The notes beneath the pieces are model-generated. The model did no database searches and was not told the DNA's origin. It saw only the letters and a list, made by a program, of their open reading frames with translations. The translations under genes and the position numbers were made by a program. A DNA stretch of 64,000 nucleotides from Candidatus Omnitrophica bacterium UBA6215 (GTDB lineage: Bacteria; Omnitrophota; Gorgyraeia; Pluralincolimonadales; Pluralincolimonadaceae), in the NCBI GenBank assembly GCA_002421665.1, contig DISH01000006.1, positions 217,784-281,783 on the forward strand, written 5' to 3'. Shown in pieces: positions 8,020 to 64,000 of this stretch (positions within the stretch are counted from its first letter, which is position 1; each line of letters opens with the position of its first letter).

Positions 8020-9399
8020 ATGGCTAATACGGCTTGCAGCGAAAACCTTAAGGTCAAGAACGAGGTCGCGGACCGCGTTCTTCTTGTATTGAATTCCTAC
8101 GATAAACTTGAATTCTCCCCGGATCTAAGGCAATTCTTCAAAAAGAAATTAAGGGAAAAATACAACAAGGTAATAGAGGTCGAGCTTATAGGCATGGCGG
8201 AGCTCGGGCAGACCAGGGGAAACCTTACCGGTTACCTCAGGACGCACGAGCGTATAAAAAAACTCATGTCAAAGAAAAAACTCGATTCCTTCGATACTAT
8301 CATATACATACATGACGCCGGGTTGGCTACCAGGATCTTCCCCCTCTCTTATGAGTTTGGGACCCCGTCAAAGGCAAGCATAAGGTTCCCCGAAGGCAGG
8401 GCGCCGGACATGCTTCTTCCCTGCATAGCGAAAAGTATCCCGCTTTTAAAGAATACTGTGGTAATATTGCCGATAGACCAGTATTTCGACTATTCGGATA
8501 TAGATATAGGCGGACTCCTCAAGTCCCTCAACAAAAATACCGCTTCCATGCTCTTCACTCCCGTCCAGATAAACAGGGCTCTGGGAAGCCTGGGGACGGC
8601 TAAACTCGGAGAGGACAATTCTATTTCATGTTTCTACGAGAAGACCTTTGACGAAAAATTAATACCCAAATTCGGAAAGAATATGACGCTGGCAAACACT
8701 TTCCAGCTTTTTATGACCAAGGAAGGCATAGACAAGCTCCAAAATGCCCTTGATCTTTTCTGTTCCAAGGAAAAGAACAAGGACTTCATAATCCACTTGA
8801 ACGCAACTGAATGGAGCTTCAATAAACTTGTCTGCGAATCCCTTGTCCTCAACAAAAAAGCCCTCTCAAAGATACAGTTGTCCATGCGTGAATGCCTGCA
8901 GCAATATGAGATAAGCGTAGGCGGCGCGGTAGCCAAGGGATATTGGATAGACTGGGCGTCAAATATAATGACCTACCTGGAACTTTTGAGGAAACTTACG
9001 GCACAAATAGCCAAGCCGGACGAATACGGCAATTATTTCGTCAGGAGCAAGAAGATAAAGCCTTCGAGTAAACTGGAATCGTGCGTATTCATCGATTGCG
9101 ATACCATAGATCTTTTCGGAAGCTATAAGAATTGCATATTCATAGCTTGCGAATGGGTCAGGATAATGAATTGCTTCGAGGGCAACGGCTCCCTGTTCTA
9201 TGCACTCAAAAAGAAGAACTTCCTGCGCAAAGAGATGAATTACAAGCTGTTCGCAAATTTCTTAAGCGGAAGGCGCAATATAGAGTTCGAATGCGACATC
9301 TATGATGACTACAGGAACCTCTATAGCGCAATGAAGAAGGTCAGTGACGACTGGCTCTATTATCACGAAGTCCTGAAGGAAAGCTACAACACTAGGTAA
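8020..9399 (+). CDS. Hypothetical protein with divergent sugar-phosphate nucleotidyltransferase-like (GT-A) segment
   Basis: 459-aa ORF. Residues about 95-160 (HDAGLATRIFPLSYEFGTPSKASIRF...VVILPIDQYFDY) resemble the NTP_transferase signature GxGTRLxPLT...PK...GDhiy, but two of the three signature glycines are replaced. Convergent with the giant gene; the 3' ends overlap by 8 nt. Confidence 0.55.
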   Translation: MANTACSENLKVKNEVADRVLLVLNSYDKLEFSPDLRQFFKKKLREKYNKVIEVELIGMAELGQTRGNLTGYLRTHERIKKLMSKKKLDSFDTIIYIHDAGLATRIFPLSYEFGTPSKASIRFPEGRAPDMLLPCIAKSIPLLKNTVVILPIDQYFDYSDIDIGGLLKSLNKNTASMLFTPVQINRALGSLGTAKLGEDNSISCFYEKTFDEKLIPKFGKNMTLANTFQLFMTKEGIDKLQNALDLFCSKEKNKDFIIHLNATEWSFNKLVCESLVLNKKALSKIQLSMRECLQQYEISVGGAVAKGYWIDWASNIMTYLELLRKLTAQIAKPDEYGNYFVRSKKIKPSSKLESCVFIDCDTIDLFGSYKNCIFIACEWVRIMNCFEGNGSLFYALKKKNFLRKEMNYKLFANFLSGRRNIEFECDIYDDYRNLYSAMKKVSDDWLYYHEVLKESYNTR

Positions 9400-21700: not shown

Positions 21701-22602
21701 AGGCCGAGTATAGTCGTTGAGGTCAGTTTCAGGCGGGGATTATTGCCTATATGGGCCGCTACGGAAGCTTCCTCGCTCCTCTTCTTGATTATATCAAGCG
21801 TATAGCTTTTGGGTCTTATCTCCGCCTTTTCGGCGAAGACCGGGTCCCTGTTCACGTTACCGGGAAGCTCCTGGACAACTATATCAAGGTCATCGTTGTC
21901 CTCCAACCCCAGCAATCCCCTGAGATCCCGCCTTGTATTAATGAGGGTGTTCAGAGCCCCTATCTTCCTCTCGTTGACTATGCCCAGATAATTCTTCAAT
22001 TCGAGTTTTTCCGTCTCCGTATATTCAGGACTGTCTTTTATAATGCCTATTACCTTCTCGACGGTCTCGACGTTATCGCAACTCATGCGATAATTCTCCT
22101 GCGCCGCGGCAACCGCATAATAAACCGATATAAGTTTCCTTGTTTTCCATGTGACAGCCTGTTTGACCTCAAGCAGGCTTGCCTCATAGTTCTTCCTGTC
22201 TTTGGAGATATAATTAAGGCTGTCGGAAGTGATAGACATCTCTATCACCAATTGCTGTTCCGAGAAAAGGTCTGTCTGCTGGTCGAGGTCACTGAAGAGG
22301 TCGAACGGTTTTACCACGCTTCCCGCTACGCTGATCTTAGGAAGGAAGGTGTCCATCTTCCTTGCCTTTATCCCAAGCACGGCGGCATCGGAGGAAAGTT
22401 TGGCTATCTGGATATCCCTGTCAACTTCATAAAGCTTGTTAAGGGCTGACTCAAGCGAAAGATTACTGCAATCTATTCCTGCCTGTAATTCCTCAGCAGA
22501 ATAAGGTTCTTCCGCACCGCCCGGACAGGATACGAGCATTACCGATACTGTCAACGCGGTAAAAACTACTGCTATAATTTTGATCGATCTTCGGCTAAGC
22601 AT
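18754..22602 (-). CDS. Outer-membrane efflux protein (TolC/OprM/NodT family) lipoprotein, 1282 aa, about three OEP units long
   Basis: Lipobox LVSC in the signal peptide and an OEP-family N-terminal signature LSLESALNKLYEVDRDIQIAKLSSDAAVLGIKARKMDTFLPKISVAG. OEP-like half-repeat starts recur at about aa 245, 445, 640, 830 and 1030. Highly coiled-coil. SD AAAGGGG upstream. Confidence 0.75.
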   Translation of the reverse strand: MLSRRSIKIIAVVFTALTVSVMLVSCPGGAEEPYSAEELQAGIDCSNLSLESALNKLYEVDRDIQIAKLSSDAAVLGIKARKMDTFLPKISVAGSVVKPFDLFSDLDQQTDLFSEQQLVIEMSITSDSLNYISKDRKNYEASLLEVKQAVTWKTRKLISVYYAVAAAQENYRMSCDNVETVEKVIGIIKDSPEYTETEKLELKNYLGIVNERKIGALNTLINTRRDLRGLLGLEDNDDLDIVVQELPGNVNRDPVFAEKAEIRPKSYTLDIIKKRSEEASVAAHIGNNPRLKLTSTTILGLAEGKGTRFERKVITDTQLELFVTDFGHSEGLNHTKSLESQIARLEVLKASEDLECDDLKGNAKITDLRDKIDNYREYIAKTEDTLRMLREKLSLPVIEIIRMSDNLYKAKYALQQALSDYTVTLSNLNGIELKPENTSPTYQDMGLEDLISRGERADLLTARQIAEKRIKIEKVRIGAEKAGYLPKLYGAAVLENVNINGTPSKNTRAFLALEGRILDNKVGAAVKAARAGLKEAECGGRALQSVVADEVIRNYLLVLRFGNTLKKLDEIKRLKNDLINDMLEDMKGKNPKYTNSDILPLVLQRLEVDKEISNVEFSLAVAEYNLKRWTGIPLNETITVKEPALFGSEEGLSDFKMMLKEKVEPYYDGMASVKQALNTVERKRAGEAKALAYEGAIWQVRYETKGSDYDGWEDPDKQLSFSVSIPWGDHAEKIAMSEAARDRIKSEIEYAKSMDSYEKEKFAVKSAYDASNDLLNDLRNKMENSGNQFKITDELYKFGGRTKRQWADARLDYLVSQLTYEESVFDNYYASAREILFVEKDARQEGSDKILLSGLQEALDIALRNSREVKKYEEALLLEEESLNYYKMIRVNGNVSKGYYVMDNRGSQKKKTVQTTGAVVSAEVDLVNKLMVKKQELRVELARKDLEQAKFDLSVKVVDAYCDYLASLAEYSQVNDECEKQKAVLAGVEELYTAGAVAHVDYLKQKEFVESLLQKTIDARKYCEGYRSNLGIVVGGLDPRFSIMNIEVYDELSKRVTLADDCDIKERLAAELGLAKKDLEVPLREDLLKRIEYNIKMTRLDTEAISKQIKSLTFNLEYTYLTDFMGSVTRNEAIFSRYNSLSEFISLNSMDKIFDPTTATKARVAALQEKITALKSKSYMSEVLQNALRIFTDYKMAVLDYENFKKNVSVLEERMNELMRAEEATGDMSVVRIREIKETLLNNKIKNIQAYYHMVSLMNELDRYLMRYTAKGIDSYITYVSK

Positions 22603-49702: not shown

Positions 49703-51745
49703 CTATTTGTGGTGTTCGTGGCCGTGGTTTGCCCCGGCTTCCTCGGTTGCCTTTTTGGCGCCGGCAACGATCCCCTGGGTGATCTTAGCGGGGACTTCCT
49801 CATAATGGTCGAATTTCATGGAGTAAGAACCGCGGCCGCCTGTCATCGAACGCAACTCCGTGGCATATTTGAACATCTCGGCCAAAGGTATCAGGGCTTT
49901 GACGTACTCCTGCTTGCCCCGGCCCTCTATTCCCATTATCCTGCCGCGGCGCGAATTAATGTCACCCGTTATCTGCCCGAGGTAATCGTTAGGGACTATG
50001 ATCTCCACGCTCATGACAGGCTCAAGGAGAACCGGGCTCGCCTGCTCTTGTCCGTTCTTGAAGGCCATAGACCCGGCTATCTGGAAAGCCATGTCGGAAG
50101 AATCGACTTCGTGGAACGAGCCGTCATATACGGTTACCCTTACGTCGACCACCGGGTACCCGGCAAGGAAACCTTTTGTCATGGCATCCTTAACCCCTTT
50201 CTCAACAGAAGGGATATACTGCCTGGGGATGGCGCCTCCAACGACTTTATCGACGAATTCAAAGGCTTTTCCATGGGGCAGCGGTTCAAGCTCCAGCCAG
50301 CAATCGCCGTATTGGCCTCGGCCGCCGGACTGCCTCTTGAACTTACCCTGTACCTTGACGGTCTTCTTTATGGTCTCTTTATACGGGACTTTCGGGACGC
50401 CTACTTCCACTTCCACCCCAAAACGTTTCTTCATCCTGTCAAGCATGACATCCAGATGCAGGTCCCCCATGCCGGAAATTACCAATTCATGGGTCTGTTC
50501 GTCACGACTTATACGGAAGGTCGGGTCTTCTGAAACAAGCCGCGTAAGCGCAGCCATGATCTTTTCTTCATCCTGGCGTGTCTTGGGCTTTACCGAGTTC
50601 GATATGCACGGTTCCGGGAAACCGGTAGGAGTAAAAACAACCGGATTTTTATCGTCACAAACGGTGTCGTTATTATGGGTATCCTTAAGTTTGGCTACGG
50701 CGGCAATATCCCCTGCGGCGGCTTTTTGCACAGGTATCTGTTCCTTACCCTGAAGGATATATATCTGTCCTATCCTCTCCTTCAAGTCCCTTGAAGAATT
50801 ATAGAAACCCGAGTTGGACTCGACTGCCCCGGAATATACCCTGAAAAGCGTAAGATGGCCTACGTATGGATCGAAGATATCCTTGAATATAAAAGCTGAA
50901 AAGGGCCCGTCTTCGACGGGGCTTCTCGAGACGGCTTCTTTTGTCTTAGGGTTGACCCCTTCGACCGCTTGCCTATCCGCAGGAGAAGGCAGGAGGTCGA
51001 CTATGCCGTCCAATAGCTCCTGGACGCCAATGTTCTGCACCGCGGACCCGCAAAAAACCGGTACTATTTTTCCCGATATGCAGGCGGCTTTAAGGGCTTT
51101 CGTGATCTCGTCAGGGGACAACTCCTTCCCTTCAAGATATTTTTCCGTGAGCGAATCATCGGTCTCCACAACAGCGTCAAGGAGGTCTTCTTTAAGCTTC
51201 CCTCCTTTTGCCAAAACGTTCTCGACCGATTTAAAGGAAAGCTGTTCCCCCACCGGGCAGTTCAATGCCACGCACTGCCGCCCGAAGCGCTCACGTATCG
51301 CCTCCAGAGTATTTTCAAAACTGGCGTTCTCCTTATCCAGTTTGTTCAGGAATATGATGCGGGGGATCGCGCTATCCTCCAGTAACCCCCATACGCGTTC
51401 CGTACCCACTTCTATCCCGTGAACAGTCTCAACGATGAGAACGGCCGCGTCCGCGGCGCGCATCGGAGCTATGACATCTCCTACAAAATCGGCATAACCG
51501 GGCGTGTCCAGGATATGTACACGCGTATTCTTCCATATAAGATGCAGGAACTTTGAGCTAATGGATATCTTCCGCTCTATCTCATCGGAGTTGTAATCGG
51601 AATGGGTATTGCCCTCGGATATCTTACCGAGGCGTGTCGTCATCTTGGAATCGAACAAAAGCGCTTCAATCAATGATGTCTTCCCCGAACCGGAGTGCGA
51701 AACGAAGATCACGTTGCGGATGTCTTTTGAGGGATATCTTTCCAT
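49703..51745 (-). CDS. Elongation factor G paralogue (EF-G2-like translational GTPase)
   Basis: 680 aa with the five-domain EF-G architecture. G motifs are DTPGYADF and NKLD. G1 is divergent: SHSGSGKTS instead of AHIDAGKTT. SD AAGGAAGGA. Confidence 0.85.
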   Translation of the reverse strand: MERYPSKDIRNVIFVSHSGSGKTSLIEALLFDSKMTTRLGKISEGNTHSDYNSDEIERKISISSKFLHLIWKNTRVHILDTPGYADFVGDVIAPMRAADAAVLIVETVHGIEVGTERVWGLLEDSAIPRIIFLNKLDKENASFENTLEAIRERFGRQCVALNCPVGEQLSFKSVENVLAKGGKLKEDLLDAVVETDDSLTEKYLEGKELSPDEITKALKAACISGKIVPVFCGSAVQNIGVQELLDGIVDLLPSPADRQAVEGVNPKTKEAVSRSPVEDGPFSAFIFKDIFDPYVGHLTLFRVYSGAVESNSGFYNSSRDLKERIGQIYILQGKEQIPVQKAAAGDIAAVAKLKDTHNNDTVCDDKNPVVFTPTGFPEPCISNSVKPKTRQDEEKIMAALTRLVSEDPTFRISRDEQTHELVISGMGDLHLDVMLDRMKKRFGVEVEVGVPKVPYKETIKKTVKVQGKFKRQSGGRGQYGDCWLELEPLPHGKAFEFVDKVVGGAIPRQYIPSVEKGVKDAMTKGFLAGYPVVDVRVTVYDGSFHEVDSSDMAFQIAGSMAFKNGQEQASPVLLEPVMSVEIIVPNDYLGQITGDINSRRGRIMGIEGRGKQEYVKALIPLAEMFKYATELRSMTGGRGSYSMKFDHYEEVPAKITQGIVAGAKKATEEAGANHGHEHHK

Positions 51746-51858: not shown

Positions 51859-54800
51859 TCAAAACTCCTTGAAATACAAGATATCCGTCTTCGGAAGATA
51901 TGTAACGGTAATGTCCTCCAAGACGGGGGTCTCAAGCGCCGGGGTCCCGGTCGTCGAGATCGCCGACTGCTGCAGGACAAAACCGTCCCAGTAATTATCC
52001 GTAGGTATCCACTTACCCCAAACACCTATCCCGGCGCGCACTTTCGTCGCGGATGTCGGGGCCGCAACCCAGCCCATATCCATAAATATATAATCACTAC
52101 CAACGTTAGTGCCCGATGAGACCGGCGTCGAACCTGAGTAAACAATGTTGCCTGCACTATCATAAAATTTCAGTTCAAGATCTCCGTGCCAACTGCCGCA
52201 GTCTGCGGACCATGAATACCATCCGCTGAATCTGTATTTGGCGCCTTTAACGCACGGCACCTCCTGATATATTTCGGTATCCAATTTACTGCTGTTGCTG
52301 CCGGAGCGCCTGCCGTGTCGCAGGCTATATGCTCCTTCATGCGGCTTGAGAGTGCTTGCAGTAGCGCCATTTGCCAATGCAACCGTCCAGTTGCTCAAAC
52401 TCCCGCTTTCGAAGCCGCCGTTCACTAAGACATTATCAACCTCTTGGACAGTTTCAGTCCCCGTAGCAATTAATTCCGCTTTAACCGCCAATTTGTCACT
52501 AACCGTATTTATAGCCCGCCCCGCGGAGGGATCGGTCCACTCCCCTGTCCATGAGGTCTTTGCACCTGTCGTATCCACGGATACCGTAATTCCGCCGCCT
52601 TCATCGGCTATTTCGTCCGGCACGGCTTGCGTCCATGTTATGGTCCCAAGCAGGACATTTTTCCCGAAGTCGATCTCCGGGGACTCATAACTACCGTTCA
52701 TGACATAAATACCGTTGTTCATATCCGCGACGATCTCGTAATCAGACCGTTGGGTATCCCACATCCAGACCGAACCTATCACCGAGTTGGAAAACTCGTA
52801 GCTGCCTTCACTTACATTCCACTTGCTGTATTCGTTTCCGCACATGAAATCATAATCTATATCGGATTTATCCTCGTAATCGGGATGATAATAATAAACG
52901 TTTATATCGTTAGATCCGTCCGAACCGCAATTATAAAAGAGCTTCAGTTCCCCGTTCAAATATACGTACATAGGGCATACGGAGGAATTGTACGTCCCCT
53001 CCGGGTTTCCTTCTATCGGAGAAGGATTAGTCCACGTAACCGCCAGATGATTCCACTTACCCGCATCCCAATGGCCCCAACTCCTGCTGCCATAAGGCCA
53101 TCCAAAGCCGGTATCCCCCCATTTGAACAACCCTTCGGAAAACCCCCATTTTGAAGTCGACGGGCTCCATCGCCCTCCTCCCCACTTAGCCTCAGCGTAA
53201 GTCCCCCCTCCGTCGGACCACATGAATAACGCCATAAATGGCATTCCGGCGGGATCGTCATAGCCGTCTATGGCGCTTCCGCTCGTAAGTCTTAGCATCT
53301 TCCTGTCCACATCGCTGTCCCCATACATCATGGAATCGATACTGTTCCATTGGGTCTTGAACCATATCTCAAGCGTCCCCTTACTGGCGGAAACATTCCC
53401 GGGGCATTTATATGCGGCGTTTACCTTATCGAACATGTCGGAAAGCATTCCGTCGGGCATAAGGTCCCCGCGGGTCAGGTAATCCGCAATACTTCCAATA
53501 TTTGGCTTTGTCCCGCTCCCGCTCGCCTTGACATCGGAAAGGGATTTATTGCCGCCCGCACTCTGGGCATCCAACGACTTCCTGTAATTAGCGTTGAACC
53601 AGGAGGTGCAGCTCGTCCCATCCGGGCCGCCAACGGTCTTCTTGGCGAGCATTATCTGTCCGTCGTATGCCGCCGCGGACGGACGCAGGTCCGTATCTTC
53701 CACCTCGACCGGCTCGGGATAAGTCGTGATATCCGTCTTGGAAGAGCCCGTCGCCTCAAACTGCTGCTGGCTCGTTAACCTGTACTGGTCAAATATCTTG
53801 GCAATACATATCACGTTCTTCTTCGCAACGGTTATCGGAGGTCTGCTTACCGTGCCCACAGAGGTTATCTCGTAGTAACCGCCGGAATTAAAACTGAACT
53901 CCGTAGTGTTGACACTAAAACCTCTGTCGTCCGAGTCCGCCGCACCGTTCTTGTTCCAATCCATGAGATATTTCCCGATATACCCCATCTTTGACGCCCA
54001 GCCGTAATTACGTATCCATGAAAACCCGGTATTCGGATTCGCGTTAGCCATAACCAAATCGGCGTCCCTGGAGCCTATCGAACTGCATCCTGCTATTGAC
54101 TCATAAAACTGCGGCCATCCTGAATAAGGCCTATGGTCTATTATATACTGGGCCAAAACATTCGCTTCATCAGCCGTTATCTCAAGAGTACCGGTCCCGG
54201 AACATGCATCGCATGCAACGGGCCCGATCAATGATGTCCCGGCCAGTGAACCGTCTCCCCCGCATTTCGGGCAGGCGTGTATCGCTTTTATCCCCCTGAG
54301 GACGGCCCTAAGGACTTCTTTTGAAGCGGTATTCACGTTGATCGGAGCCCTCGGCTGCAACGCATAAGGCGTAACCAAATCTGTAGGGTTTACCACGGAA
54401 GTATCGATAAAACCGTAGATGGTAAGGTAATCGGCGACCCCGGCGTACTTTTCCTCGATCTCGGCTTTTGTGGAACCGCTTATATATAACTTTATCTCTT
54501 CTTTCGCGGAATAAGGCGCATGCGAAGCTATGTTATCGCAATCGGCATCGGTAAGCAGCGCGGGACTTGAGGTAGCGCTCAAGTTCTTTAATATCTGGGC
54601 AAGGTTTGGATTGCCGTCATTAAGGTTTATCCGGCTGGCGCAATCTACCGCGGTAACGCTATATGAACCGGCAAGGCCCCTGTCGAAGGTAAACGTTCCG
54701 TCATACGATACTTCGGACGTATCAACGGCATCCGCAGTCGCCCCGTTGTCCCCCGTCCTCAATTCGGCTATCGCTTTCGCTATACCGGCATCCGCCATCA

Positions 54801-54942
54801 TCGACGCCTTTTTCGCGTAATAATAATTAAACGCCGATTTGAGACCTAATATAGAATTTATGGTAAAACTTACGCCAATAAAGGACATAAAGGTCAACGC
54901 GCCCAAGGCTATAAGTATAGCGACGCCTTTTCTTTTCCGCAT
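51859..54942 (-). CDS. Giant (1027 aa) PilX/GspK-like minor-pseudopilin protein with DnaJ-type zinc knuckle, LamG/ConA-like and CBM4/9-like modules (paralogue 1)
   Basis: N-terminus MRKRKGVAILIALGALTFMSF...AKAIAEL resembles PilX_N/GspK. GspK-like NLN (SYSVTAVDCASRINLND) and NVNTAS (INVNTASKEVLRAVL) motifs are present. Zinc knuckle CPKCGGDG...CDACSGTG. LamG-like GKWNHLAVTW...YVYLNGEL. CBM4/9-like VNGGFESGSLSNWT...YRFSGW. The C-terminus PVLEDITVTYLPKTDILYFKEF is shared with the paralogues. Confidence 0.75.
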   Translation of the reverse strand: MRKRKGVAILIALGALTFMSFIGVSFTINSILGLKSAFNYYYAKKASMMADAGIAKAIAELRTGDNGATADAVDTSEVSYDGTFTFDRGLAGSYSVTAVDCASRINLNDGNPNLAQILKNLSATSSPALLTDADCDNIASHAPYSAKEEIKLYISGSTKAEIEEKYAGVADYLTIYGFIDTSVVNPTDLVTPYALQPRAPINVNTASKEVLRAVLRGIKAIHACPKCGGDGSLAGTSLIGPVACDACSGTGTLEITADEANVLAQYIIDHRPYSGWPQFYESIAGCSSIGSRDADLVMANANPNTGFSWIRNYGWASKMGYIGKYLMDWNKNGAADSDDRGFSVNTTEFSFNSGGYYEITSVGTVSRPPITVAKKNVICIAKIFDQYRLTSQQQFEATGSSKTDITTYPEPVEVEDTDLRPSAAAYDGQIMLAKKTVGGPDGTSCTSWFNANYRKSLDAQSAGGNKSLSDVKASGSGTKPNIGSIADYLTRGDLMPDGMLSDMFDKVNAAYKCPGNVSASKGTLEIWFKTQWNSIDSMMYGDSDVDRKMLRLTSGSAIDGYDDPAGMPFMALFMWSDGGGTYAEAKWGGGRWSPSTSKWGFSEGLFKWGDTGFGWPYGSRSWGHWDAGKWNHLAVTWTNPSPIEGNPEGTYNSSVCPMYVYLNGELKLFYNCGSDGSNDINVYYYHPDYEDKSDIDYDFMCGNEYSKWNVSEGSYEFSNSVIGSVWMWDTQRSDYEIVADMNNGIYVMNGSYESPEIDFGKNVLLGTITWTQAVPDEIADEGGGITVSVDTTGAKTSWTGEWTDPSAGRAINTVSDKLAVKAELIATGTETVQEVDNVLVNGGFESGSLSNWTVALANGATASTLKPHEGAYSLRHGRRSGSNSSKLDTEIYQEVPCVKGAKYRFSGWYSWSADCGSWHGDLELKFYDSAGNIVYSGSTPVSSGTNVGSDYIFMDMGWVAAPTSATKVRAGIGVWGKWIPTDNYWDGFVLQQSAISTTGTPALETPVLEDITVTYLPKTDILYFKEF

Positions 54943-56010
54943 CTAATAACCTGTCCCTGTTGTTATCGAAGCTTCTTTTCTGATATAACTCGTCAATTCC
55001 TCAAATCCGTCCTCGTCGAGAAGCTTTTTCATTACCTCAGGATTTATCCTCGTATTCGGGTCGTTCTTCACCTTATTATAGACGGATGGATTTTTAAACT
55101 CAAGGTCGCAGTATTGCTGTAATTTTAAAAGTGAGTTAGCGGCAACTGTCACTGCATCTTCCGCACCCGGATGGAGAACATTTCTGGCATCGCTCTTCTT
55201 CTGCAACCCCCTTAAATAAAGCGCCCATGAGTTTGCCCATTTATTCCACTCTTTCGCGTTGAATTTCCTCTTCGAAGACTCATACATCCTGCATAGTTCC
55301 GAACGCGACGCCTCAAGCTTGGAGATCGAGGAACAAACCCTGCCCTTAAACTCCGCCTCCGTGCAGAGTATCTCCTTCATCCCGCCAGCATAAAGCAGGC
55401 AGCGCGACTCTGCCGTTCTTGCCTTGGTGCCTGAGGCAAAATTGGTCAACAACAGTTTTTTGATATCCTCTGTTTGTCTCTCCGGGGTAAAGATCGCCGT
55501 GACCGTATACACGGAAGGAAGCAGCCTTCTTTTTGAAAATTTGAAATCCATGAAGAACTTGTTTCCGAATACGCTTGTCCTGCCCGAAGCCATGACCACT
55601 CCGCGTCTTGCTATTAGAAGTTCTATAGAGGCGCCGTCGGGAAAAACGGCATCACCTTCAACGTCAACGATCACGGTATCTCCCTGACGGTCATAAAAAG
55701 CCCTTACCGACAGATCATAGGGCATGGCCTTGTCTTTATCTTCCTGGGGGTTAACCGGGGAGGGGGCCGATTCGGTCTTGGAGAAAAAATCTTCCGGCAG
55801 GGGCTTCTTTTCTATGGATCCTACATCACTCAAGCTGAATTTTACCTTACCTGCCTTCATCCTGAAGATCAGGCAGTTGCTATCCTCTTCCGTGATCTCG
55901 CCTTCAAACACTTTGCCGTTCTTAAGCCTGATCTCGTCCGCGAACGAACCCTGCAGGACAAAAAAAAGACTGGCGCAGATAACAATTATCCGGCCGGCCT
56001 TTGATAGCAT
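54943..56010 (-). CDS. Secreted hypothetical protein, paralogue family member 1 (355 aa)
   Basis: Sec signal peptide (cleavage near SFA/DE). N-terminal IRLKNGKVFEGEITEE beta-hairpin motif, a beta-sandwich-like middle and a W-rich helical C-terminus EWNKWANSWALYLRGL. Paralogous to the 343-aa and 403-aa genes. No gap from the upstream pilin-like gene. Confidence 0.7.
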   Translation of the reverse strand: MLSKAGRIIVICASLFFVLQGSFADEIRLKNGKVFEGEITEEDSNCLIFRMKAGKVKFSLSDVGSIEKKPLPEDFFSKTESAPSPVNPQEDKDKAMPYDLSVRAFYDRQGDTVIVDVEGDAVFPDGASIELLIARRGVVMASGRTSVFGNKFFMDFKFSKRRLLPSVYTVTAIFTPERQTEDIKKLLLTNFASGTKARTAESRCLLYAGGMKEILCTEAEFKGRVCSSISKLEASRSELCRMYESSKRKFNAKEWNKWANSWALYLRGLQKKSDARNVLHPGAEDAVTVAANSLLKLQQYCDLEFKNPSVYNKVKNDPNTRINPEVMKKLLDEDGFEELTSYIRKEASITTGTGY

Positions 56011-56013
56011 GTA

Positions 56014-59000
56014 TCAAAACTCTCTGGTGTAGAGCACCTGTGTCTTCGGCAGGTACGTAAAAGTCACGTCCTCGATAACAGGCGTATCAGTAAGAGGGAC
56101 AAGCGTCGTCGCTCCCTGCTCGATGAGCTTAAGGTCGTCAAAACTGGCGGGAATATACGCCCCGGAAGCCCAGCTGCATAGAGATATAGTGCAAAGGGTC
56201 GCGTCAGCGGGAGCCGTTACCCAGCTGCCGTTGGTAGGTATGCGCGTGTAAAGCCACGCGTCGCGAGTCCCCATGATAGATACTTCACCGCTGTTATAAC
56301 CGCCCGTCCCGTTGAACCACATCGTATAATAACAATTAATTGTTCCATACCCGCTCGGAAGGTAGGAATATCCTTCGAACTTGTATGCCTTTCCTCCGGT
56401 TATCGGCACGTCTATAGATACCCTGGCACTGCCGAAATTACCTGCGGACCAGGTCCCGCCGTGGACCGGACGGGCTTTAGTGCTAAGGAAAGTCCCCCAA
56501 CTCGGCGAGGCGCCCCAGCCTGAAGGAAGCGGGGCTTCGCTGCCGCCCAAGCCGGGATCATGCGTTTCAAAAGTCGGATCGGTGCAATCTTGCATGACAT
56601 CCGCGTCGGGCTGCGCAGCCGTACCCTTGGTCGAATTGAATACGCTTCTGAAGCGTATGGAACTGCTCCTTACGCGGTTATTGGAATTATTGACTATCGC
56701 CTCTCCTGATGATGAGCCGGTAGACTCCCAATCCCCGTAATAGGTCCCGGATATCGCCGGGTCAACAGCCATAGTTATCGTCTCTTCCGTACTCGGAGTT
56801 ATGGCGGTCCAGCTTGCCGTAGCCCACGTAACCGGGGTCCCGGTATCCGGAGAAGGCAGCGTTAATGTCGGAGATACATACGTCCCGGTCTTCCGGAACA
56901 GGCCGTTGCCGTATTCGGTCAGTATCTGGGCATTCGAAAGCTGCTGGTCCCATATCCTTACCGACGCCACAACCCCGTTCAACTGGCTGCGCTGGAAATG
57001 TGAAACCGTGCCGCTGCCCGCCCACCACTCGTTCCCAAGCATGAGGTATTGGGCGGAAGTGCTATCAAGATATTCCAAGTGGTGGAAATTCTGGTCCGTA
57101 CTCCTCTGTTTCCCGTCAAAATAGACTTTAAGGTCCTTCGGATAAATGCCCGGCCATGTAGACGTACTGTTAGCCGGATTACATTTGCCGTCATTAGCCG
57201 GTTCTTTCCAGCTGATCACATACTGGTGCCATTTACCGGAATTCCACGTACCCAAGGCCTCGGACCCTACATAGTTCCTGCAAAATTCTATGGCGTATTC
57301 GTTGCTTCCTTCTCCCTTGGAAGGATAATATTGCCAACTGGTACCGTTCCAGTACCCGTATCCCTGGGCGCCTATGGAACAGCCTTTCTGTGTCCCGCTG
57401 AAATTCTGCGAATAAAAAACATACGTGGAGAACGGCCATGTCTTGGTTCCGCTGCCGGTTATCTCGTCTTTGCTCATCAGTCGGTATATCTTGCGGTCCT
57501 TACAATCATCGTTATAAAGCATCGTATCGTTGCTGTTCCACATCGACTTGAACCATATCTCCATAGTACCGGCGCTGTAAGTGATATTATTGTTAGCCAG
57601 GTAGTCCGGGCAGACCACGTCATATGTATCGATAAGCATGCCGTCGGGCATCAATTCACCCCTTGAGCCCGCGGAAGCCACGCTGCCGATATTGGGCTTG
57701 GTCGCCAAAGTTCCGGAACCCGGGTTCGGCGGGTTTTGCAAAGCCGAGCTCCCCCCCGCGGCATTGGCATTCAACGAGGTGGTATAAGTAGCCCTGAAAA
57801 ATTTTCCGGAATTAGGCGTAGTACGGCTGACCCTGTCCATCATTATTTGCCCGTCATACGCCGCAGCTGTCACGCCTACCCCGGCAGGTTCCGGGTAAGT
57901 AGTCGTATTGGTTTTTACGTTCCCCGCCGAATCGAACTGCTGCTGATTGGCGGCTTTAACTATACCGAAAAGCCTGGCTGTCTCAGATATACCTCGCTGG
58001 GCGAGCAACACACCCGCAACCGTCCTGTAAGTACCGGTGGACCTTATCTCGTAATAGCCGCCCGAGTTAAAACTGAATTCCGTCGTGCTCTTCCTGAGCC
58101 CTTTATCGGTCGCCTCAACGGTCCCGTTCTTGTCGATATCTATCATATACTTACCCACATAACCCAGTCGCAATGCCCACGCATCATTACGGGCCCACGA
58201 AAAACCCGTATTGGGGTTAGCGTTAGCCATCACCACTTCCTGGTCGGACGAATATGTCCCGTTATTAAAGAACGCCTTTATCGAAGAATAGAAAGACTCC
58301 CAGCTTATATAGGGCCTGTGCGCCACTATGTAATTGGCCAGGTCCTGGGCTTCGGTCGAGTTTATTATCAGGTTACCCGTAATATTTGAAGGAGAGCCCC
58401 CTCCGTCGCAATACGGACAATCCAGGTGGGTACCTAACACGTCAAAATAATAACCGTCCCCTCCGCATTTCGGGCATGAATGGTCGGCCTCTATATTCAT
58501 CAGCAGGGCTCGAAGGACCTCAGCCGAAGCCGTATTGACGTTCACCGGGGAACGCGGCTGCAGCGCGTATGGAGTAGTTATATCCTGCGGATCGATCGTC
58601 GTAGGATCGACATAGCCGTATATTGTTATATAATCGGCTATCTTCGCGTACTTCGCTTCCGATATTCCCGCTTTTACCTTGATCTCTTCTTTCGTGGTAT
58701 AAGGCCTGTTGGCGGCTATGTTGTCGCACTCGGCGGTTGTCAGGCCCGCTGAGACAACGGTATTGAGGTTTTGCAATATCTGGGAAAGGCGCGCGTTGCT
58801 GTTGCTGTCGCTGAGGTTTATGCGGCTGGCACAGTCGATAACCGTAACGCTGTAACTGCCGCGGTTGCCAAGAAGGGAATTATCGGAAAACCCGCTTGAA
58901 AAAGCCGTTTCCGCAAGACTGTCTATGGCGTCATTAAAGGCGCCCTGATTGCCGTACCTGAGTTCGGCTATGGCCTTAGCTACACCGGCTTCCGCAAGCA

Positions 59001-59139
59001 TCCTGGCTTTGACATTAGCATTAAAATTATGCGCCGCTTTCTGCTCCATTATAACCGAAAGCACCATGGTCGAGCCTATAAGCGAGAGCATGGCCAGAAC
59101 ACCAAGAGCGAAGACTATAGCGAGTCCTTTTCTCATCAT
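56014..59139 (-). CDS. Giant (1041 aa) PilX/GspK-like minor-pseudopilin protein with zinc knuckle, LamG-like and CBM-like modules (paralogue 2)
   Basis: The N-terminal ~430 aa are co-linear with paralogue 1 (AKAIAELRYG, SYSVTVIDCASRINLSD, VNVNTASAEVLRALL, CPKCGGDG...CPYCDGGG, ANANPNTGFSW, TEFSFNSGGYYEI). LamG-like GKWHQYVISW...LKVYFDGKQ. C-terminus PVIEDVTFTYLPKTQVLYTREF. Confidence 0.75.
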   Translation of the reverse strand: MMRKGLAIVFALGVLAMLSLIGSTMVLSVIMEQKAAHNFNANVKARMLAEAGVAKAIAELRYGNQGAFNDAIDSLAETAFSSGFSDNSLLGNRGSYSVTVIDCASRINLSDSNSNARLSQILQNLNTVVSAGLTTAECDNIAANRPYTTKEEIKVKAGISEAKYAKIADYITIYGYVDPTTIDPQDITTPYALQPRSPVNVNTASAEVLRALLMNIEADHSCPKCGGDGYYFDVLGTHLDCPYCDGGGSPSNITGNLIINSTEAQDLANYIVAHRPYISWESFYSSIKAFFNNGTYSSDQEVVMANANPNTGFSWARNDAWALRLGYVGKYMIDIDKNGTVEATDKGLRKSTTEFSFNSGGYYEIRSTGTYRTVAGVLLAQRGISETARLFGIVKAANQQQFDSAGNVKTNTTTYPEPAGVGVTAAAYDGQIMMDRVSRTTPNSGKFFRATYTTSLNANAAGGSSALQNPPNPGSGTLATKPNIGSVASAGSRGELMPDGMLIDTYDVVCPDYLANNNITYSAGTMEIWFKSMWNSNDTMLYNDDCKDRKIYRLMSKDEITGSGTKTWPFSTYVFYSQNFSGTQKGCSIGAQGYGYWNGTSWQYYPSKGEGSNEYAIEFCRNYVGSEALGTWNSGKWHQYVISWKEPANDGKCNPANSTSTWPGIYPKDLKVYFDGKQRSTDQNFHHLEYLDSTSAQYLMLGNEWWAGSGTVSHFQRSQLNGVVASVRIWDQQLSNAQILTEYGNGLFRKTGTYVSPTLTLPSPDTGTPVTWATASWTAITPSTEETITMAVDPAISGTYYGDWESTGSSSGEAIVNNSNNRVRSSSIRFRSVFNSTKGTAAQPDADVMQDCTDPTFETHDPGLGGSEAPLPSGWGASPSWGTFLSTKARPVHGGTWSAGNFGSARVSIDVPITGGKAYKFEGYSYLPSGYGTINCYYTMWFNGTGGYNSGEVSIMGTRDAWLYTRIPTNGSWVTAPADATLCTISLCSWASGAYIPASFDDLKLIEQGATTLVPLTDTPVIEDVTFTYLPKTQVLYTREF

Positions 59140-60350
59140 CAGTTTATCTCCCTGGGGGCGGATGACAGCTCGGAATTCATGATGCCCACCAGTTTCTGCA
59201 ACTCCATCTCCAAAGCGTAACGTTTCTTCTCCATATCGGCTTTCTTTGCGGCACCTGCCTCGGAAGACCGGGTCTTAAGGCTATCGGTCATTATAACATA
59301 TATATCGGAAAGATACTTTACCGCAATAGGCAGGCCCTTCTCGCACTCCGGATACAGGGCCGCCGCGTCTTTCCTTCCGTTCTTTAGGCTGTTACTCAAC
59401 TTTTTAAGGCGGAAACGCCACCTATCGGACCATTCATCCCACGTCACGGCGTTAAAATCGTTAAGGGACAAAGCATAGACATCTTTGAGTTCTTTATATA
59501 ATTCTTCTACGGAAGACACCTCGAGCGCAGTGTCGCTCTTCTCGTTCTTTTCGTTCTTCGCGGCTTCGGAAGCCCTTCCTATAACTACGTCGGCACTCGA
59601 AGCCGTGTAAGGTATCTTACCGTTTAAAGCTGCCTTCTTGAACTCCGGCCTCTGCATGTCAGGGATGAACACTGCTTCCACTTTATATTTGCCCGCGGCC
59701 AATTCCGTCCCGAAAGGTCCGAACGATATACTGAAGGAGTTACCCATAACGACCGACTCCCCCATGGTGATCACATTATCTATGCGTTTCAAGAATATCT
59801 TCAGGACGGCCCAATCAGGCAGCCCCGTCTTGCCGTCTACATGCAGTATTATCTTGTTCCCGTATTGTTCGATGGAATTCGATATCTCTATCCCGTAAGG
59901 GGATATCTCTGCCTCTTCTTCCCCGGCATCAAGAGGAATAGAGGCCTCCACGCCTTTTAATTGTCCGCCGGGACCTCCTGTTTTCATAGAACTGATCACG
60001 CTATCAACCTGTTTCTCTGGAAAGAACAGTACCTGCACTTCATATTTCCCGGACAGCGGTTTATCTAAAGGCCCGAGCGTAACATAATATTTGCCGGGAG
60101 AGACTTTTATGTCTTTAAAAGCGACCGGACTGCCGTTCTTCTTAACAAAAACCGATACTACGGCATCCCTCGGAAGAGTAGTCTCCCCTGAAACACTTAC
60201 TTTCGGGCCTTCCTTGGTCCTCAGGTAAAGCGCCTTATCAATGGTTATCTCGAATACAGTGTCACCGTCCGCCGCGGGGGCCAAAAAACAAAAAAAGCCG
60301 GCAACAAGTATAATTATATTAACGGCTTTTGGAAGTAACTCTCTTTTCAC
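59139..60350 (-). CDS. Secreted hypothetical protein, paralogue family member 2 (403 aa, two beta-sandwich-like repeats)
   Basis: GTG start with SD GGGAGGG at N7. Signal peptide (APAA/DG). Two repeats of a ...GKYxVxxxFxPxxQ module. W-rich C-terminal motif TWDEWSDRWRFRLKKL. 1-nt overlap with the downstream giant gene. Confidence 0.7.
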   Translation of the reverse strand: MKRELLPKAVNIIILVAGFFCFLAPAADGDTVFEITIDKALYLRTKEGPKVSVSGETTLPRDAVVSVFVKKNGSPVAFKDIKVSPGKYYVTLGPLDKPLSGKYEVQVLFFPEKQVDSVISSMKTGGPGGQLKGVEASIPLDAGEEEAEISPYGIEISNSIEQYGNKIILHVDGKTGLPDWAVLKIFLKRIDNVITMGESVVMGNSFSISFGPFGTELAAGKYKVEAVFIPDMQRPEFKKAALNGKIPYTASSADVVIGRASEAAKNEKNEKSDTALEVSSVEELYKELKDVYALSLNDFNAVTWDEWSDRWRFRLKKLSNSLKNGRKDAAALYPECEKGLPIAVKYLSDIYVIMTDSLKTRSSEAGAAKKADMEKKRYALEMELQKLVGIMNSELSSAPREIN

Positions 60351-60406
60351 GGTTTATCCCTCCCACCCGGCTATTTGACCACGCTGTTCAATTAAAATAT
60401 ATCATA

Positions 60407-61438
60407 TTATTGCCTGTTCTTCAAGTCGGCGGCTACAGCGGAAACATCCTGCTTTGTCTCTTCCAGCGCCTGTTCAAACGACCTCTTAAGAAGCGCGACG
60501 TCCTGCACAGGGAACCCCGTTTTCGCAGGTTTTGAATCCAGGGAGTTCAGCTTGATCGTATATGCCCTTAAAAGCAACGGCAGCTGGTTAAAACAGAACC
60601 GGATCCTCCTCTGGGACAGGGCATGGGTAGACACAACATAGGCCTTGGCTTCTTCTTCAAATTTCTGCCTGGCGGCACTGACCTTAGAGAACCACCTCCC
60701 CGACCAGTCTTCCCATTTCTGCGCGCTATACGAGGACCTGCTCTTCTCATATTCCGCATTAAGCTCTTTGTAAAGGGCTTCCGCCCCTGAAGCCGTCCGG
60801 TTGAGGTATTCCCTGGTCTTAGTCTCGTCGGTTTCCGCGCGTTCCCGGCTGCCTATCATCAATTCGTAAGGCTTCGAATATAACCTGTTATTGGTGCCGG
60901 TCATCGCCTCCGCCTGAACGGTATACACTCCTGATATCATGCGATTTTCGAACGGACCGAATACCACGTAGAACTCCCCTCTCTTTACGCGGGATTCTTT
61001 CATGTTTATTACCCCTCCCGCCTGCATGAAATATACCCTCAAAGGTGTGTTGTTGGCAAGTTCGCTCGTTCCGCTGACGTATATCTTGCCTCTCTTGTAT
61101 TCCGCCTTCACTTTTATGCTCGCGGAAAATACCTGCGGGGCTTCTTCCGTTTTCGGTTCCGGCTCGGGTTCGGTATTTATCTCGGGGAGCGCCGCGGTCG
61201 AATATCCCTCGGCCGGCTCCCTGGCTTCGAAAGAGCTTACATCCTTCCTGGCTATCCTCATCTTGCCTGAGCCCAATTTGATCTCGATATAATCTATTGT
61301 CTTATCGGTTATCTTCCCCTCTATAGTCCTCCCGTTCCGCAGGAAGATTATATCGGCACGTGACGAAGCCGCCATAAATAACCATATTAGCGAGATCGAT
61401 ATTATCTTAGCCGGCCTTATCATTGTCCTTCTCTCCAA
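60407..61438 (-). CDS. Secreted hypothetical protein, paralogue family member 3 (343 aa)
   Basis: Signal peptide (SSRA/D). IIFLRNGRTIEGKITDK N-terminal motif as in the 355-aa paralogue, and a W-rich KWEDWSGRWFSKV motif. The start may be the internal MIRPAK (top about 61423), which overlaps the upstream stop in ATGA fashion. Confidence 0.7.
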   Translation of the reverse strand: MERRTMIRPAKIISISLIWLFMAASSRADIIFLRNGRTIEGKITDKTIDYIEIKLGSGKMRIARKDVSSFEAREPAEGYSTAALPEINTEPEPEPKTEEAPQVFSASIKVKAEYKRGKIYVSGTSELANNTPLRVYFMQAGGVINMKESRVKRGEFYVVFGPFENRMISGVYTVQAEAMTGTNNRLYSKPYELMIGSRERAETDETKTREYLNRTASGAEALYKELNAEYEKSRSSYSAQKWEDWSGRWFSKVSAARQKFEEEAKAYVVSTHALSQRRIRFCFNQLPLLLRAYTIKLNSLDSKPAKTGFPVQDVALLKRSFEQALEETKQDVSAVAADLKNRQ

Positions 61439-64000
61439 TACTCAACCTCAACCTTAGGCAGGAAAGTTACGGTTATATCCTCAAGAACGGGAGTCCTGGA
61501 ACTCGCTGAATACTGGTCCCTGCTTATACTCGACGATGAAAGTACCGCCTTATACTGAATAAAGGGATCCGTCCCTGAAAGCTGCGCCCCATTGGTAAGC
61601 GATGACCCCCACGATGTATCCCCGGTAGGCAGACCTGAAGCGGTAGACGCTATCCTGGCATACATAGTGACGTTTGTGCTGGACATGGGTTGGGTCTGGG
61701 GGGACCACGAAACGGTTCCCCATATTACCGATGAGCCCGCGCAGAACGGCGTCGACACTAAATAACCGTTCTCGGGTATTCCCCGGATATCATCCCAATG
61801 CGTCTGCAGGACTGTTACCGCGCCGGCCTTATCAAAATCCGCCGGCCCTATGGTACACTGTCCCCTGTTGAAATCCGACCAGTCCCAACCGAGGTATTGG
61901 TTATTGGCTATATATTTGAAGATCTGGGTATTAGCCCCAAGCGTGCCCGGCGACCAGGTAGACAGGGCTCCTGAAGTACCGTTTACGAAGGACCTGTACG
62001 ATACGCTCGTCCCGGAATTCGCGCCGGCCATCCCGATGGTCTTCTCCGGCAGGTAATTGAACTGAGTATAGAACATCTTTGTATACATCCTTATCTCGTT
62101 GGTATCGCCGAAACAATAAAGAGGTTTGGGCTCAGTGGTAACGTTGGTATTGCCATGGCTGTCGTTGAGCAGGCATTTGTAGCCTCTTGCCGTCATCGTT
62201 TGCCCGCCGTATCCGGTAGGCCATGTATCATCCTGCACGCCCTTGGCGAATATCCAGCATCCGCAGAACGGCGCTTCAGGCTGCCAGTAAGTATAGCTTC
62301 CAGGAGAAGGTATCGTCTCAAGTTCCCAACTTGCCGGCCGCGTCGGGTTGTATATGTAAGTCGGGTTTCCGCTCGCGTCATAAACCGGATACACCTCCGG
62401 CTCCCCGTAACGGCCCTCAAGGCTCCCGTCAAAGACACCGTTACCGTTCTGGTCATAATAATAGACATACCTGCTGCTGCCTGAATACAGGCGCGTCGTG
62501 GGAGGCGGGAAAGACAGCGGATATACCGTTCCGTTGCCGCGCCATGCTATCCTGGTAGAAGGCGCGGGTTCTTTTACGTATGCCCTTACAAAAACGGAAT
62601 TCGTGTTAGGTCTGAAATAGTTCCTGTTGACCTCGAAATGTTTGCTTTCAAAAGTGTTGACCTCTATATATACCTCCCTGTCGCCGTCAGTATCATTATC
62701 CTGGAAATCCTGGTAACTAACGTTAAATTCGCTAGTCCCCCACCACGACCTGTTCGCGACATAACCTTTCATCATGACGGCCGAGAACGCCGGATCCTCG
62801 TCAAAATTATCCCAATACCCGAGCTTAAGAGAATCCGGAGTTGTCGCGTAACCCGGGACCTCCCATTGCATCTTGCCCGCCCCGGAATTCCAACTGTCTT
62901 CTACAGTAGGACACTCGTCAAGCCAATTAACATTGAAGACCTCCCCGTCCTGGAAGTTGCCGTATCTGCCGAACCAGGCGGCATAAAACTCTTCTTTGGT
63001 GGTCTGCGTCCACGTACCGAATACCTTGACGACCGCGGAAAGCTGTTTTACGGAAGCCGTCTGCGTGCCATTAAGCTCCCTGGCGGTAACGCCTATCGTA
63101 TAGATCCCCGCGTGGTTATATCCGCTCGTAAGTTCTGTCCTCGGGTCATACCCGAGCCTCTCAGCAGGTATAGGCGCGGCCGAAGCGAAGGAGGCCGATT
63201 TCCACTTCAACTGCACCGAATTATGGAACAATTGGTCATAGTATTCCAGGCGTATCCTGTGCCAACCGGGATTCGCGAATGTATAAGTCCCCGACGCGGT
63301 CCTGTCCCACGGATAATTTTCCGAACTTTGCTTATCCGTCCAACGGGAACAGACTAAAGTATCATTTATATAGAACCTTGCACCGTCATCGCAGGCTATC
63401 CAGAAGGTTATCGGAGTATTGACCTCGGAATCCGTTATCTCTATATAACCGGTCCAGATGACCCCGAATGTGGTAAGCCCGTAATCGCCTACCGTGGCGA
63501 TGGTCCCTCCTCCGGCAAATTCAGCGTCATGCGTCTCCGCCCAAGTATCGCCTCCGTCACCGTCGGTCCCGGGCATTACCGCGTCATCAGGAGTCTGGTA
63601 TATCTGTCCGATCTCCACTATCTTTTCGCAAAAACTTGACTTGTCAATAGCTACGTTAGGAGTTGAACCTGTCAGGTTGCTGTAATACTTGCCCAGGAGG
63701 CCGCCCCTGATTATAGGCTTATTCACCGTCAATTTGTTCTTATTAGCTTCGAAAACCGCCTGGGTAATACCGGTTGCCATCCTGATCTCGGAAATGGCGT
63801 CAAAAGGCGCGTTCTTGCATTGCGCGGACCCCTCGATATTACCGGAAACGCCTCCTACTGCGGTATTGACCGCGTCGGAGTCCCTGTAGTCTATTATGTT
63901 GGCGATCTGCTGGTTAGAAAGGAAGGTTTGGAGTATAGTTATCTGGCTTGAGTCGGTTTCATCAAAGGTATTTATATTTACCTTATCCTCCTCTGAGGAT
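61420..64000 (-). CDS. Giant PilX/GspK-like minor-pseudopilin protein with PA14 domain (paralogue 3; 5'-partial, N-terminus beyond window end)
   Basis: The reading frame stays open from the track's M at 63780 to the window edge. In that upstream part it encodes a GspK-like ANIIDYRDSD motif. It contains a PA14-like segment (GTYTFANPGWHRIRLEYYDQLFHNSVQLKWKS) and ends with PVLEDITVTFLPKVEVEYWREGQ, like paralogues 1 and 2. Confidence 0.7.
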   Translation of the reverse strand, partial: SSEEDKVNINTFDETDSSQITILQTFLSNQQIANIIDYRDSDAVNTAVGGVSGNIEGSAQCKNAPFDAISEIRMATGITQAVFEANKNKLTVNKPIIRGGLLGKYYSNLTGSTPNVAIDKSSFCEKIVEIGQIYQTPDDAVMPGTDGDGGDTWAETHDAEFAGGGTIATVGDYGLTTFGVIWTGYIEITDSEVNTPITFWIACDDGARFYINDTLVCSRWTDKQSSENYPWDRTASGTYTFANPGWHRIRLEYYDQLFHNSVQLKWKSASFASAAPIPAERLGYDPRTELTSGYNHAGIYTIGVTARELNGTQTASVKQLSAVVKVFGTWTQTTKEEFYAAWFGRYGNFQDGEVFNVNWLDECPTVEDSWNSGAGKMQWEVPGYATTPDSLKLGYWDNFDEDPAFSAVMMKGYVANRSWWGTSEFNVSYQDFQDNDTDGDREVYIEVNTFESKHFEVNRNYFRPNTNSVFVRAYVKEPAPSTRIAWRGNGTVYPLSFPPPTTRLYSGSSRYVYYYDQNGNGVFDGSLEGRYGEPEVYPVYDASGNPTYIYNPTRPASWELETIPSPGSYTYWQPEAPFCGCWIFAKGVQDDTWPTGYGGQTMTARGYKCLLNDSHGNTNVTTEPKPLYCFGDTNEIRMYTKMFYTQFNYLPEKTIGMAGANSGTSVSYRSFVNGTSGALSTWSPGTLGANTQIFKYIANNQYLGWDWSDFNRGQCTIGPADFDKAGAVTVLQTHWDDIRGIPENGYLVSTPFCAGSSVIWGTVSWSPQTQPMSSTNVTMYARIASTASGLPTGDTSWGSSLTNGAQLSGTDPFIQYKAVLSSSSISRDQYSASSRTPVLEDITVTFLPKVEVEYWREGQ

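Follow-up and report, generated by a model that had tools for sequence, protein, structure and literature searches.

Small, predicted secreted proteins paired with giant GspK/PilX-like minor pilins in Candidatus Omnitrophota: a conserved gene module with a proposed role at the type IV pilus tip

A 64,000-nucleotide stretch of DNA from Candidatus Omnitrophica bacterium UBA6215 (contig DISH01000006.1, assembly GCA_002421665.1, positions 217,784 to 281,783; hereafter the window) encodes three small, predicted secreted proteins, S1, S2, and S3, interleaved with three giant pilin-like neighbors, K1, K2, and K3. In the best reading, the region forms the distal portion of a Candidatus Omnitrophota minor-pilin operon. 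The K and S genes form a conserved module, and we put at about even the chances that S is the cognate periplasmic partner, either a stabilizer or a co-subunit, of the giant tip pilin. Comparative genomics supports this partner relation well. Gene order and co-diversification suggest that K and S bind each other physically and that S has a stabilizing role. They also favor the proposal of an earlier note on this DNA that the S proteins are probably co-expressed partners of the pilin-like giants.

An exhaustive search with an S profile over 1.84 billion representatives returned 28 matches at E ≤1e-30, 109 at ≤1e-10, and 2437 at ≤0.001. Among the best 150, many near E 1e-10 span just the N-terminal module or just the immunoglobulin (Ig)-like repeats. 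Profiles of both S and K were built and run on every fetched locus, of which 17 were distinct and had enough flank. In all 17, the S gene abuts a K gene, and the start and stop codons of these neighbors usually touch or overlap. Loss of the pairing in relatives, which the earlier note had named as evidence against partnership, is not seen in any of these loci, which include Planctomycetota and a lineage of 68% G+C. Close relatives (45-52% identity) keep the full order H-I-J-K1-S1-S2-K2-S3-K3, where H, I, and J are small prepilin-type genes, and deeper Omnitrophota have H-I-J-K1-S1 only. Elsewhere, one locus reads gspJ-S-K, one (L020) has an S-K pair inserted between EF-G and YebC, and one has S-K after an apparently non-coding stretch without a convincing gene. 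The distant members P0048 and P0050 each lie directly after a K gene. K is followed by S with a 1-nucleotide (nt) overlap in the 68% G+C contig and with a 14-nt overlap in a Candidatus Brocadiia metagenome-assembled genome (MAG; Planctomycetota), in which other pilin genes were not called within 10 kb of the pair. The S:K copy number is 1:1 in all complete loci, whether they hold one pair or three. The K-S pairing is conserved from Omnitrophota to Planctomycetota. Separately, contig CAZYUB010000006.1, labeled "uncultured Planctomycetia bacterium", carries an Omnitrophota-type operon and downstream synteny, with 51-52% identity for S1 and S3; its label may be a taxonomic mislabel.

The neighbor-joining tree of S mirrors that of K. 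The S2/S3 clades correspond to the K2/K3 clades, S1 clusters with single-copy S as K1 does with single-copy K, and both trees place the Planctomycetota-type pairs as outgroups. Distance matrices over 20 pairs correlate at r = 0.77, a value that is reached by none of 5000 permutations and is partly inflated by shared species history, from which a within-genome comparison is exempt. When the six possible within-genome assignments are compared, S1-K1/S2-K2/S3-K3 ranks top (r 0.746), and assignments that split S1 from K1 reach r ≤0.52; a swap of S2 and S3 is barely resolved, at 0.709 vs 0.746. By these patterns, S and K have co-diversified, and the pairs were duplicated together.

Several points weigh against partnership. 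Besides the inflation of the overall correlation and the narrowly resolved S2/S3 swap, the order inside pairs varies (K-S or S-K), and a distant S-like protein, P0080, outside the 17-locus count, is separated by a 300-nt gap from an upstream fragment. Pairing was assessed for S-family members down to E ~1e-13, and weaker family boundaries lie outside that range. The predicted S fold, described below, yields no functional clue. The adjacency might also be inherited gene order without functional coupling, since most loci come from one phylum with strong local synteny (EF-G, YebC, and RuvCAB downstream). However, the pair is kept where all other neighbors differ (L020, L025, and L026) and at both 54% and 68% G+C, and the pairs were duplicated together, which makes mere inheritance of gene order very improbable.

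In the order of transcription, the genes of the region are as follows.

61420 to beyond 64000, minus strand: K1, GspK/PilX-like minor pilin with a PA14 domain, partial in the window; ATGA overlap with S1
60407-61423, minus strand: S1, 338 aa from the ATG, followed by a 56-nt gap to S2
59139-60350, minus strand: S2, 403 aa, GTG start; 1-nt overlap between its stop and the K2 start
56014-59139, minus strand: K2, 1041 aa; 3-nt spacer to S3
54943-56010, minus strand: S3, 355 aa; 0-nt spacer to K3
51859-54942, minus strand: K3, 1027 aa; 113-nt gap, then an EF-G paralog

All six genes are thus read from the minus strand as K1-S1-(56 nt)-S2-K2-S3-K3. The open reading frames listed in the earlier note, 54943-56010 (355 aa), 59139-60350 (403 aa), and 60407-61438 (343 aa), all exist on that strand. 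One of its starts needs correction: S1 most likely begins at ATG 61423 (338 aa) and not at TTG 61438 (343 aa), because the ATG overlaps the stop codon of the upstream K1 as ATGA and is preceded by GGAGAGAAGG as a ribosome-binding site (RBS); public gene calls and orthologs agree. S2 has an RBS, GGGAGGG, 8 nt before its GTG start, so that RBS-like sequences are found ahead of both S1 and S2. The further claim that each S gene lies directly downstream of a giant gene holds for S1 (4-nt overlap) and S3 (3-nt spacer) but not for S2, whose upstream neighbor is S1 and which shares 1 nt with the start of K2. The 56-nt gap at S1-S2 is the exception among the five K/S junctions; at the other four, the genes overlap or are spaced by 0-3 nt. 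Terminator-like sites show no excess in the region (10 vs 14.9 expected), and promoter-like sites likewise are not enriched. A single operon with translational coupling would be the simplest reading.

The reading frame of K1 is still open at the window edge; in a full public contig of 64.7 kb that shares the window DNA, K1 has 963 aa. This contig adds three small prepilin-type genes upstream of K1, in the order gspH-like, gspI/pilV-like, and gspJ-like. Their products (151, 123, and 237 aa) all score above the cut-off of TIGR02532 (prepilin N-terminal domain), and their best sub-threshold matches are to GspH/ComGD, PilV/GspI, and GspJ/Verru_Chthon cassette protein C, respectively. Named homologs are from Candidatus Omnitrophota MAGs. 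The remainder of the window contains housekeeping genes and a PilT-family ATPase. On the downstream side, the 680-aa EF-G paralog (49703-51745, minus strand) follows the pilin operon in most fetched Omnitrophota loci. On the upstream side, a locus from a related genome (L010, 39-5283) has a complete rRNA operon (16S, two tRNAs, 23S, and 5S) directly upstream of the gspH-like gene, which probably explains why the window's contig ends ~150 nt before gspH.

Pairwise BLASTP comparisons of S1, S2, and S3 give E values of 3e-15, 1e-20, and 9e-17 at 23-27% identity, which identifies them as true paralogs, well past chance, as the earlier note had claimed. Its prediction of signal peptides also stands for all three. 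Each N-terminus has Lys or Arg in the n-region, followed by 12 hydrophobic core residues that average 2.5-3.2 on the Kyte-Doolittle scale and by an A-x-A-like site ahead of Asp. The proteins are predicted to be Sec-exported. A lipoprotein assignment was rejected, as no lipobox is present and the GFFC of S2 does not fit. The hairpin-like N-terminal motifs IRLKNGKVFEGEIT and IFLRNGRTIEGKIT are located in two of the three proteins, S1 and S3, as described earlier; S2 is without that module. The tryptophan-rich motif of the C-terminal helix is common to all three.

61307-61348, minus strand: N-terminal motif of S1
60692-60715, minus strand: WEDWSGRW of S1
59418-59441, minus strand: WDEWSDRW of S2
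55225-55248, minus strand: WNKWANSW of S3

In an alignment of 30 S-family members, each of the three Trp residues of WxxWxxxW is at least 90% conserved. A Pro in an LPDGA loop is conserved to the same level, as is the Asp that follows the predicted cleavage site of the signal peptide, and a Tyr of GxYxVEA is invariant. The C-termini vary in both length and sequence. S1 matches the family profile at E 1.5e-99.

S1 consists of a signal peptide, an SH3-like N-terminal module, a Pro/Glu linker, an Ig-like sandwich, and a helical bundle. S2 lacks the SH3-like module and has two Ig-like sandwiches between its signal peptide and helical bundle; its beta-domain matches are accordingly duplicated (residues 40-147 and 144-402). 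An AlphaFold2 model of S3 (19 sequences, meb8e4068ded3) has a mean predicted local distance difference test (pLDDT) score of 80, and in the core most 10-residue blocks exceed 90. In this model, the N-terminus is the signal-peptide helix and the last residues are disordered. The parts of S3 are predicted as follows.

55939-56010, minus strand: signal peptide
55801-55938, minus strand: SH3-like module, model residues 23-70, a small five-strand barrel
Residues 78-95: Pro/Glu linker, disordered in the model
55387-55722, minus strand: Ig-like sandwich, model residues 100-208, seven strands, pLDDT mostly >90
54967-55380, minus strand: helical bundle, model residues 211-348, pLDDT mostly >90

The earlier note had found no nameable family for either motif. 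This holds for the core, and the N-terminal motif does have a sub-threshold match. The modules of S1 and S3 match NCBIfam NF047433 (Lepto_7_Nterm) at 35.8 and 34.2 bits vs a 43-bit cut-off (E 5e-9 and 1.5e-8, ~50 of 63 model positions), and those of relatives are likewise sub-threshold. Elsewhere, proteins with PDZ, TPR, HEAT, or outer membrane protein (OMP) barrel domains carry the SH3-like module behind their signal peptides. By these matches, the N-terminal module of S is a widespread and promiscuous SH3-like module that is optional within the S family. The core, i.e., sandwich and bundle, has no Pfam or NCBIfam match in the three proteins, the 30 family members, or 10 distant members. A profile search of the PDB gives nothing for the core, and its sole match (E = 2) is to an Sm/SH3-like protein over the N-terminal module. 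A Foldseek search of the S3 model against the PDB finds weak generic Ig-like matches only (E ≥2e-3, query-normalized template modeling [TM] score ~0.2). Homology to a housekeeping periplasmic family, which the earlier note had named as evidence against its proposal, is not found in Pfam, NCBIfam, the PDB profile search, or Foldseek. In curated families and open-access literature text, no description of the S family or the K-S module was found. S1-S3 thus appear to belong to an undescribed family with an optional SH3-like module and a rigid Ig-like sandwich packed on a WxxWxxxW helical bundle. A donor-strand (chaperone-usher-like) incomplete Ig fold was rejected in view of the complete seven-strand sandwich modeled at pLDDT >90.

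The S profile also matches 14 stretches of the giant protein P0036, where Pfam annotates 15 Big_13 repeats. More generally, giant proteins of 2300-5300 aa (P0036, P0045, P0054, and others) contain 14-15 tandem repeats that match the Ig-like domain of S; among these proteins, P0036 alone was Pfam-scanned. The 30 S-family members have no direct Pfam match to PF19077 (Big_13). The S sandwich may thus be distantly related to the giant surface-protein repeats that Pfam calls Big_13.

This distant relationship, together with the signal peptide and an SH3-like module that is promiscuous in periplasmic proteins, would also suit an exported cargo or a free periplasmic or surface protein, such as an Ig-like adhesin, that is encoded near pilin genes and does not bind K. 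We consider this improbable, as genes of that kind are not normally found 1:1 and codon-touching with one pilin gene across phyla. The pair also relocates jointly to unrelated genomic sites, and S1 and K1 have co-diversified.

The N-termini of K1-K3 (RKG|VAILI, RKG|LAIVF, and RRG|IALLM) have a short basic leader, Gly at -1, a long hydrophobic alpha-1, and no Glu at +5. The GspK signature P(V/I)NVNTA is present in K1-K3, and K1 has a GspK-like KVNINT segment. NCBIfam NF037980 (T2SS_GspK) matches K3 at E 3e-8, K2 at E 6e-9, and K1 at E 2e-6, with 27-36 bits vs a cut-off of 130, and PF03934 gives 17-21 bits vs a 24.2 cut-off. K2 also has a sub-threshold match to Verru_Chthon cassette protein A (E 1e-4) and weak Pfam matches to T2SSK, HHH_3, Laminin_G_3, and PilX_N. 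Among 61 listed K homologs, PF03934 or PF14341 is recorded in 19, and several are annotated as GspK or PilX. The top PDB sequence match for K is XcpX, at E 0.38 only. With regard to lectin-type modules, Pfam finds a PA14 domain in K1 (E 3.5e-8) and, weakly, CBM_4_9 in K3 (E 3.8e-5). K2 and K3 each have a putative lectin region, which in K2 is LamG-like. The AlphaFold2 model of K3 (pLDDT 83, predicted TM score 0.76) starts with an N-terminal helix of ~60 residues (3-63), and its top Foldseek matches in the PDB are the carbohydrate-binding modules (CBMs) CBM16/22/61 at target-normalized TM scores of 0.7-0.8. These CBM matches dominate, and GspK is not among the top 50. At the other end, K1-K3 have in common the C-terminal motif PV(L/I)ED(I/V)T(V/F)T(Y/F)LPK, and the K3 model has terminal strands at 1007-1016 and 1020-1026 (pLDDT ~88-91). 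The K motifs lie at the following positions.

58528-58548, minus strand: PVNVNTA of K2
61453-61491, minus strand: C-terminal motif of K1, PVLEDITVTFLPK
56044-56082, minus strand: C-terminal motif of K2, PVIEDVTFTYLPK
51889-51927, minus strand: C-terminal motif of K3, PVLEDITVTYLPK
58453-58476 and 58396-58419, minus strand: CxxCxGxG motifs of K2
54190-54273, minus strand: CxxCxGxG insert of K3

By sequence and model, K1-K3 are predicted to be tip minor pilins of the GspK/PilX-like kind that carry lectin modules, and their C-terminal strand fits the cis type, in which it would complete the pilin sheet. The three may serve as alternative tips. A separate feature of K2 and K3 is a pair of zinc-ribbon-like CxxCxGxG motifs (CPKCGGDG ... 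CDACSGTG / CPYCDGGG) just past the GspK signature. This double motif gives weak DnaJ_CXXCXGXG and anti-TRAP matches and is conserved in the consensus of 34 homologs; it was not found in the in-window part of K1. A zinc finger of cytoplasmic type is unusual in a periplasmic or extracellular protein.

We propose that touching or overlapping stop and start codons couple the synthesis of each S to that of its cognate K. In the periplasm, S would bind the large lectin-bearing head of its K, one-to-one, and would stabilize or mask this head until the H-I-J-K tip complex assembles on the type IV pilus machine; S may or may not remain bound after assembly. A single H-I-J base shared by three K-S pairs would then allow glycan-binding tips to be interchanged. 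The window also encodes a PilT/PilU-family ATPase (181-1278, minus strand; 429.6 bits vs a cut-off of 319), whose presence points to a type IVa pilus of the retractile kind in this genome. An attachment-dependent lifestyle has been proposed for Omnitrophota, nearly all of which have type IVa pili (PMC10066038). The proposed glycan-binding tips would fit such a lifestyle. If S is required to fold, mask, or display the lectin head, the K-S pair would be a simple genomic marker of adhesive tips in bacteria that are uncultured and possibly host-dependent, and the pair would be directly testable by structure prediction and co-expression.

Elsewhere in the window, a 3121-aa protein (9392-18757, minus strand) has matches to eukaryote-type 1,3-beta-glucan synthase (PF02364, E 8e-27), GT2, and GH76-like domains. 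It adjoins a 1282-aa protein with two TolC-like OEP repeats (18754-22602, minus strand). By these matches, the two may form a giant pair for polysaccharide synthesis and export.

How large adhesins are mounted on the tips of type IV filaments is an active question, and the closest known systems each share some features with the K-S module. Non-pilin proteins encoded after a pilK/pilX homolog join the tip complex (PMC13533445, PMC7541494). Ellison et al. show that PilK receives the last strand of its sheet in trans from PilY1, PilC, or MshQ, and that GspK and CpaL provide this strand in cis (PMC13533445). Like S, PilY1, PilC, and MshQ are Sec-exported non-pilins encoded directly after a PilX/PilK/GspK homolog, and these known proteins partner that pilin (PMC13533445, PMC7541494). 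Unlike S, they have ~1000-1200 aa, adhesin modules of their own, a beta-propeller (PilY1 and PilC), and a C-terminal strand that is donated to PilK. S has 300-400 aa, an Ig-like sandwich with a helical bundle, and a variable C-terminus, and in this locus it is K that carries both the adhesin modules and the terminal strand. No C-terminal beta-propeller was found in S by Pfam or NCBIfam, and the AlphaFold2 model has an Ig-like sandwich and helices. A PilY1-like strand donor was rejected on account of the unconserved S C-termini in the 30 members and the terminal strand of K.

The same comparison raises the possibility that S is itself a non-pilin tip subunit of the PilY1/PilC/MshQ kind, which would leave the cell atop its K and aid adhesion or sensing. 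In the minimal H-I-J-K-S locus, S occupies the place of pilY1 or mshQ, right after the pilX/gspK homolog (PMC13533445); it carries a Sec signal peptide and matches K one-to-one in copy number, and Ellison et al., who expect further undiscovered tip subunits, allow for unidentified ones (PMC13533445). However, K keeps its own conserved C-terminal strand, so that a strand donated in trans would be unneeded. The S C-termini are variable and disordered in the model, and S has neither a beta-propeller nor an adhesin module, the latter being on K. We consider such a tip subunit possible but rather unlikely. For the favored periplasmic partner, a precedent exists in TfcP of Myxococcus xanthus, a non-pilin periplasmic accessory protein that is needed for the formation of the cluster_1-based type IVa pilus and stabilizes the large tip protein PilY1 (PMC8833165). 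TfcP differs from S in that it is a c-type cytochrome that acts via calcium binding by PilY1, whereas the client of S is presumed to be a pilin. A TfcP-like cytochrome c was rejected for S, as S1-S3 have no CxxCH and the fold differs; no relationship between S and TfcP was detected.

On the pilin side, GspK/XcpX and CpaL/TadG resemble K in lacking Glu5 and in having the APxNVNTAS signature, a position after H-I-J, and a large insertion before a C-terminal strand, which in K is predicted to act in cis (PMC13533445). However, K is 3-4 times longer than GspK, carries PA14/LamG/CBM lectin modules and the double CxxCxGxG insert, and matches the GspK models below threshold. The Verru_Chthon cassette is likewise a set of four pseudopilin genes, one of which encodes a giant protein. 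H, I, J, and K2 match its proteins D, B, C, and A (the TIGR02596, TIGR02598, TIGR02599, and TIGR02600 set), all far below cut-off. The cassette is defined as four genes and is not known to include an S-like fifth. Among systems with variable tips, the Kil Tad pilus of Myxococcus has interchangeable KilLMN "Tips" (PMC12075869), and Streptococcus sanguinis has modular lectin pilins (PMC9934059). Like K1-K3, these are paralogous tip pilins with variable distal domains on one filament and lectin modules grafted on pilins, respectively, but their descriptions include no secreted non-pilin partner dedicated to each tip pilin.

What is new here is a variant of a known theme, a non-pilin accessory partner of tip minor pilins. 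A bolder view, which at present is speculative and seems doubtful, is that S represents a novel class of non-pilin component at the tips of type IV filaments, bound in a manner unlike the C-terminal strand addition of PilY1, with one S per lectin-bearing GspK-type pilin; the mobile K-S pair would then be a plug-in "tip cartridge" by which pili of the Planctomycetes-Verrucomicrobia-Chlamydiae (PVC) group are retargeted to host or prey glycans. If the partner is needed for the folding, masking, or display of the lectin head, it would be a new accessory component of type IV filaments. Next to strand donation in trans, as by PilY1, PilC, and MshQ, and strands in cis, as in GspK and CpaL, the locus shows a third arrangement, in which giant tip pilins of the cis type would each have a small secreted partner from an uncharacterized family.

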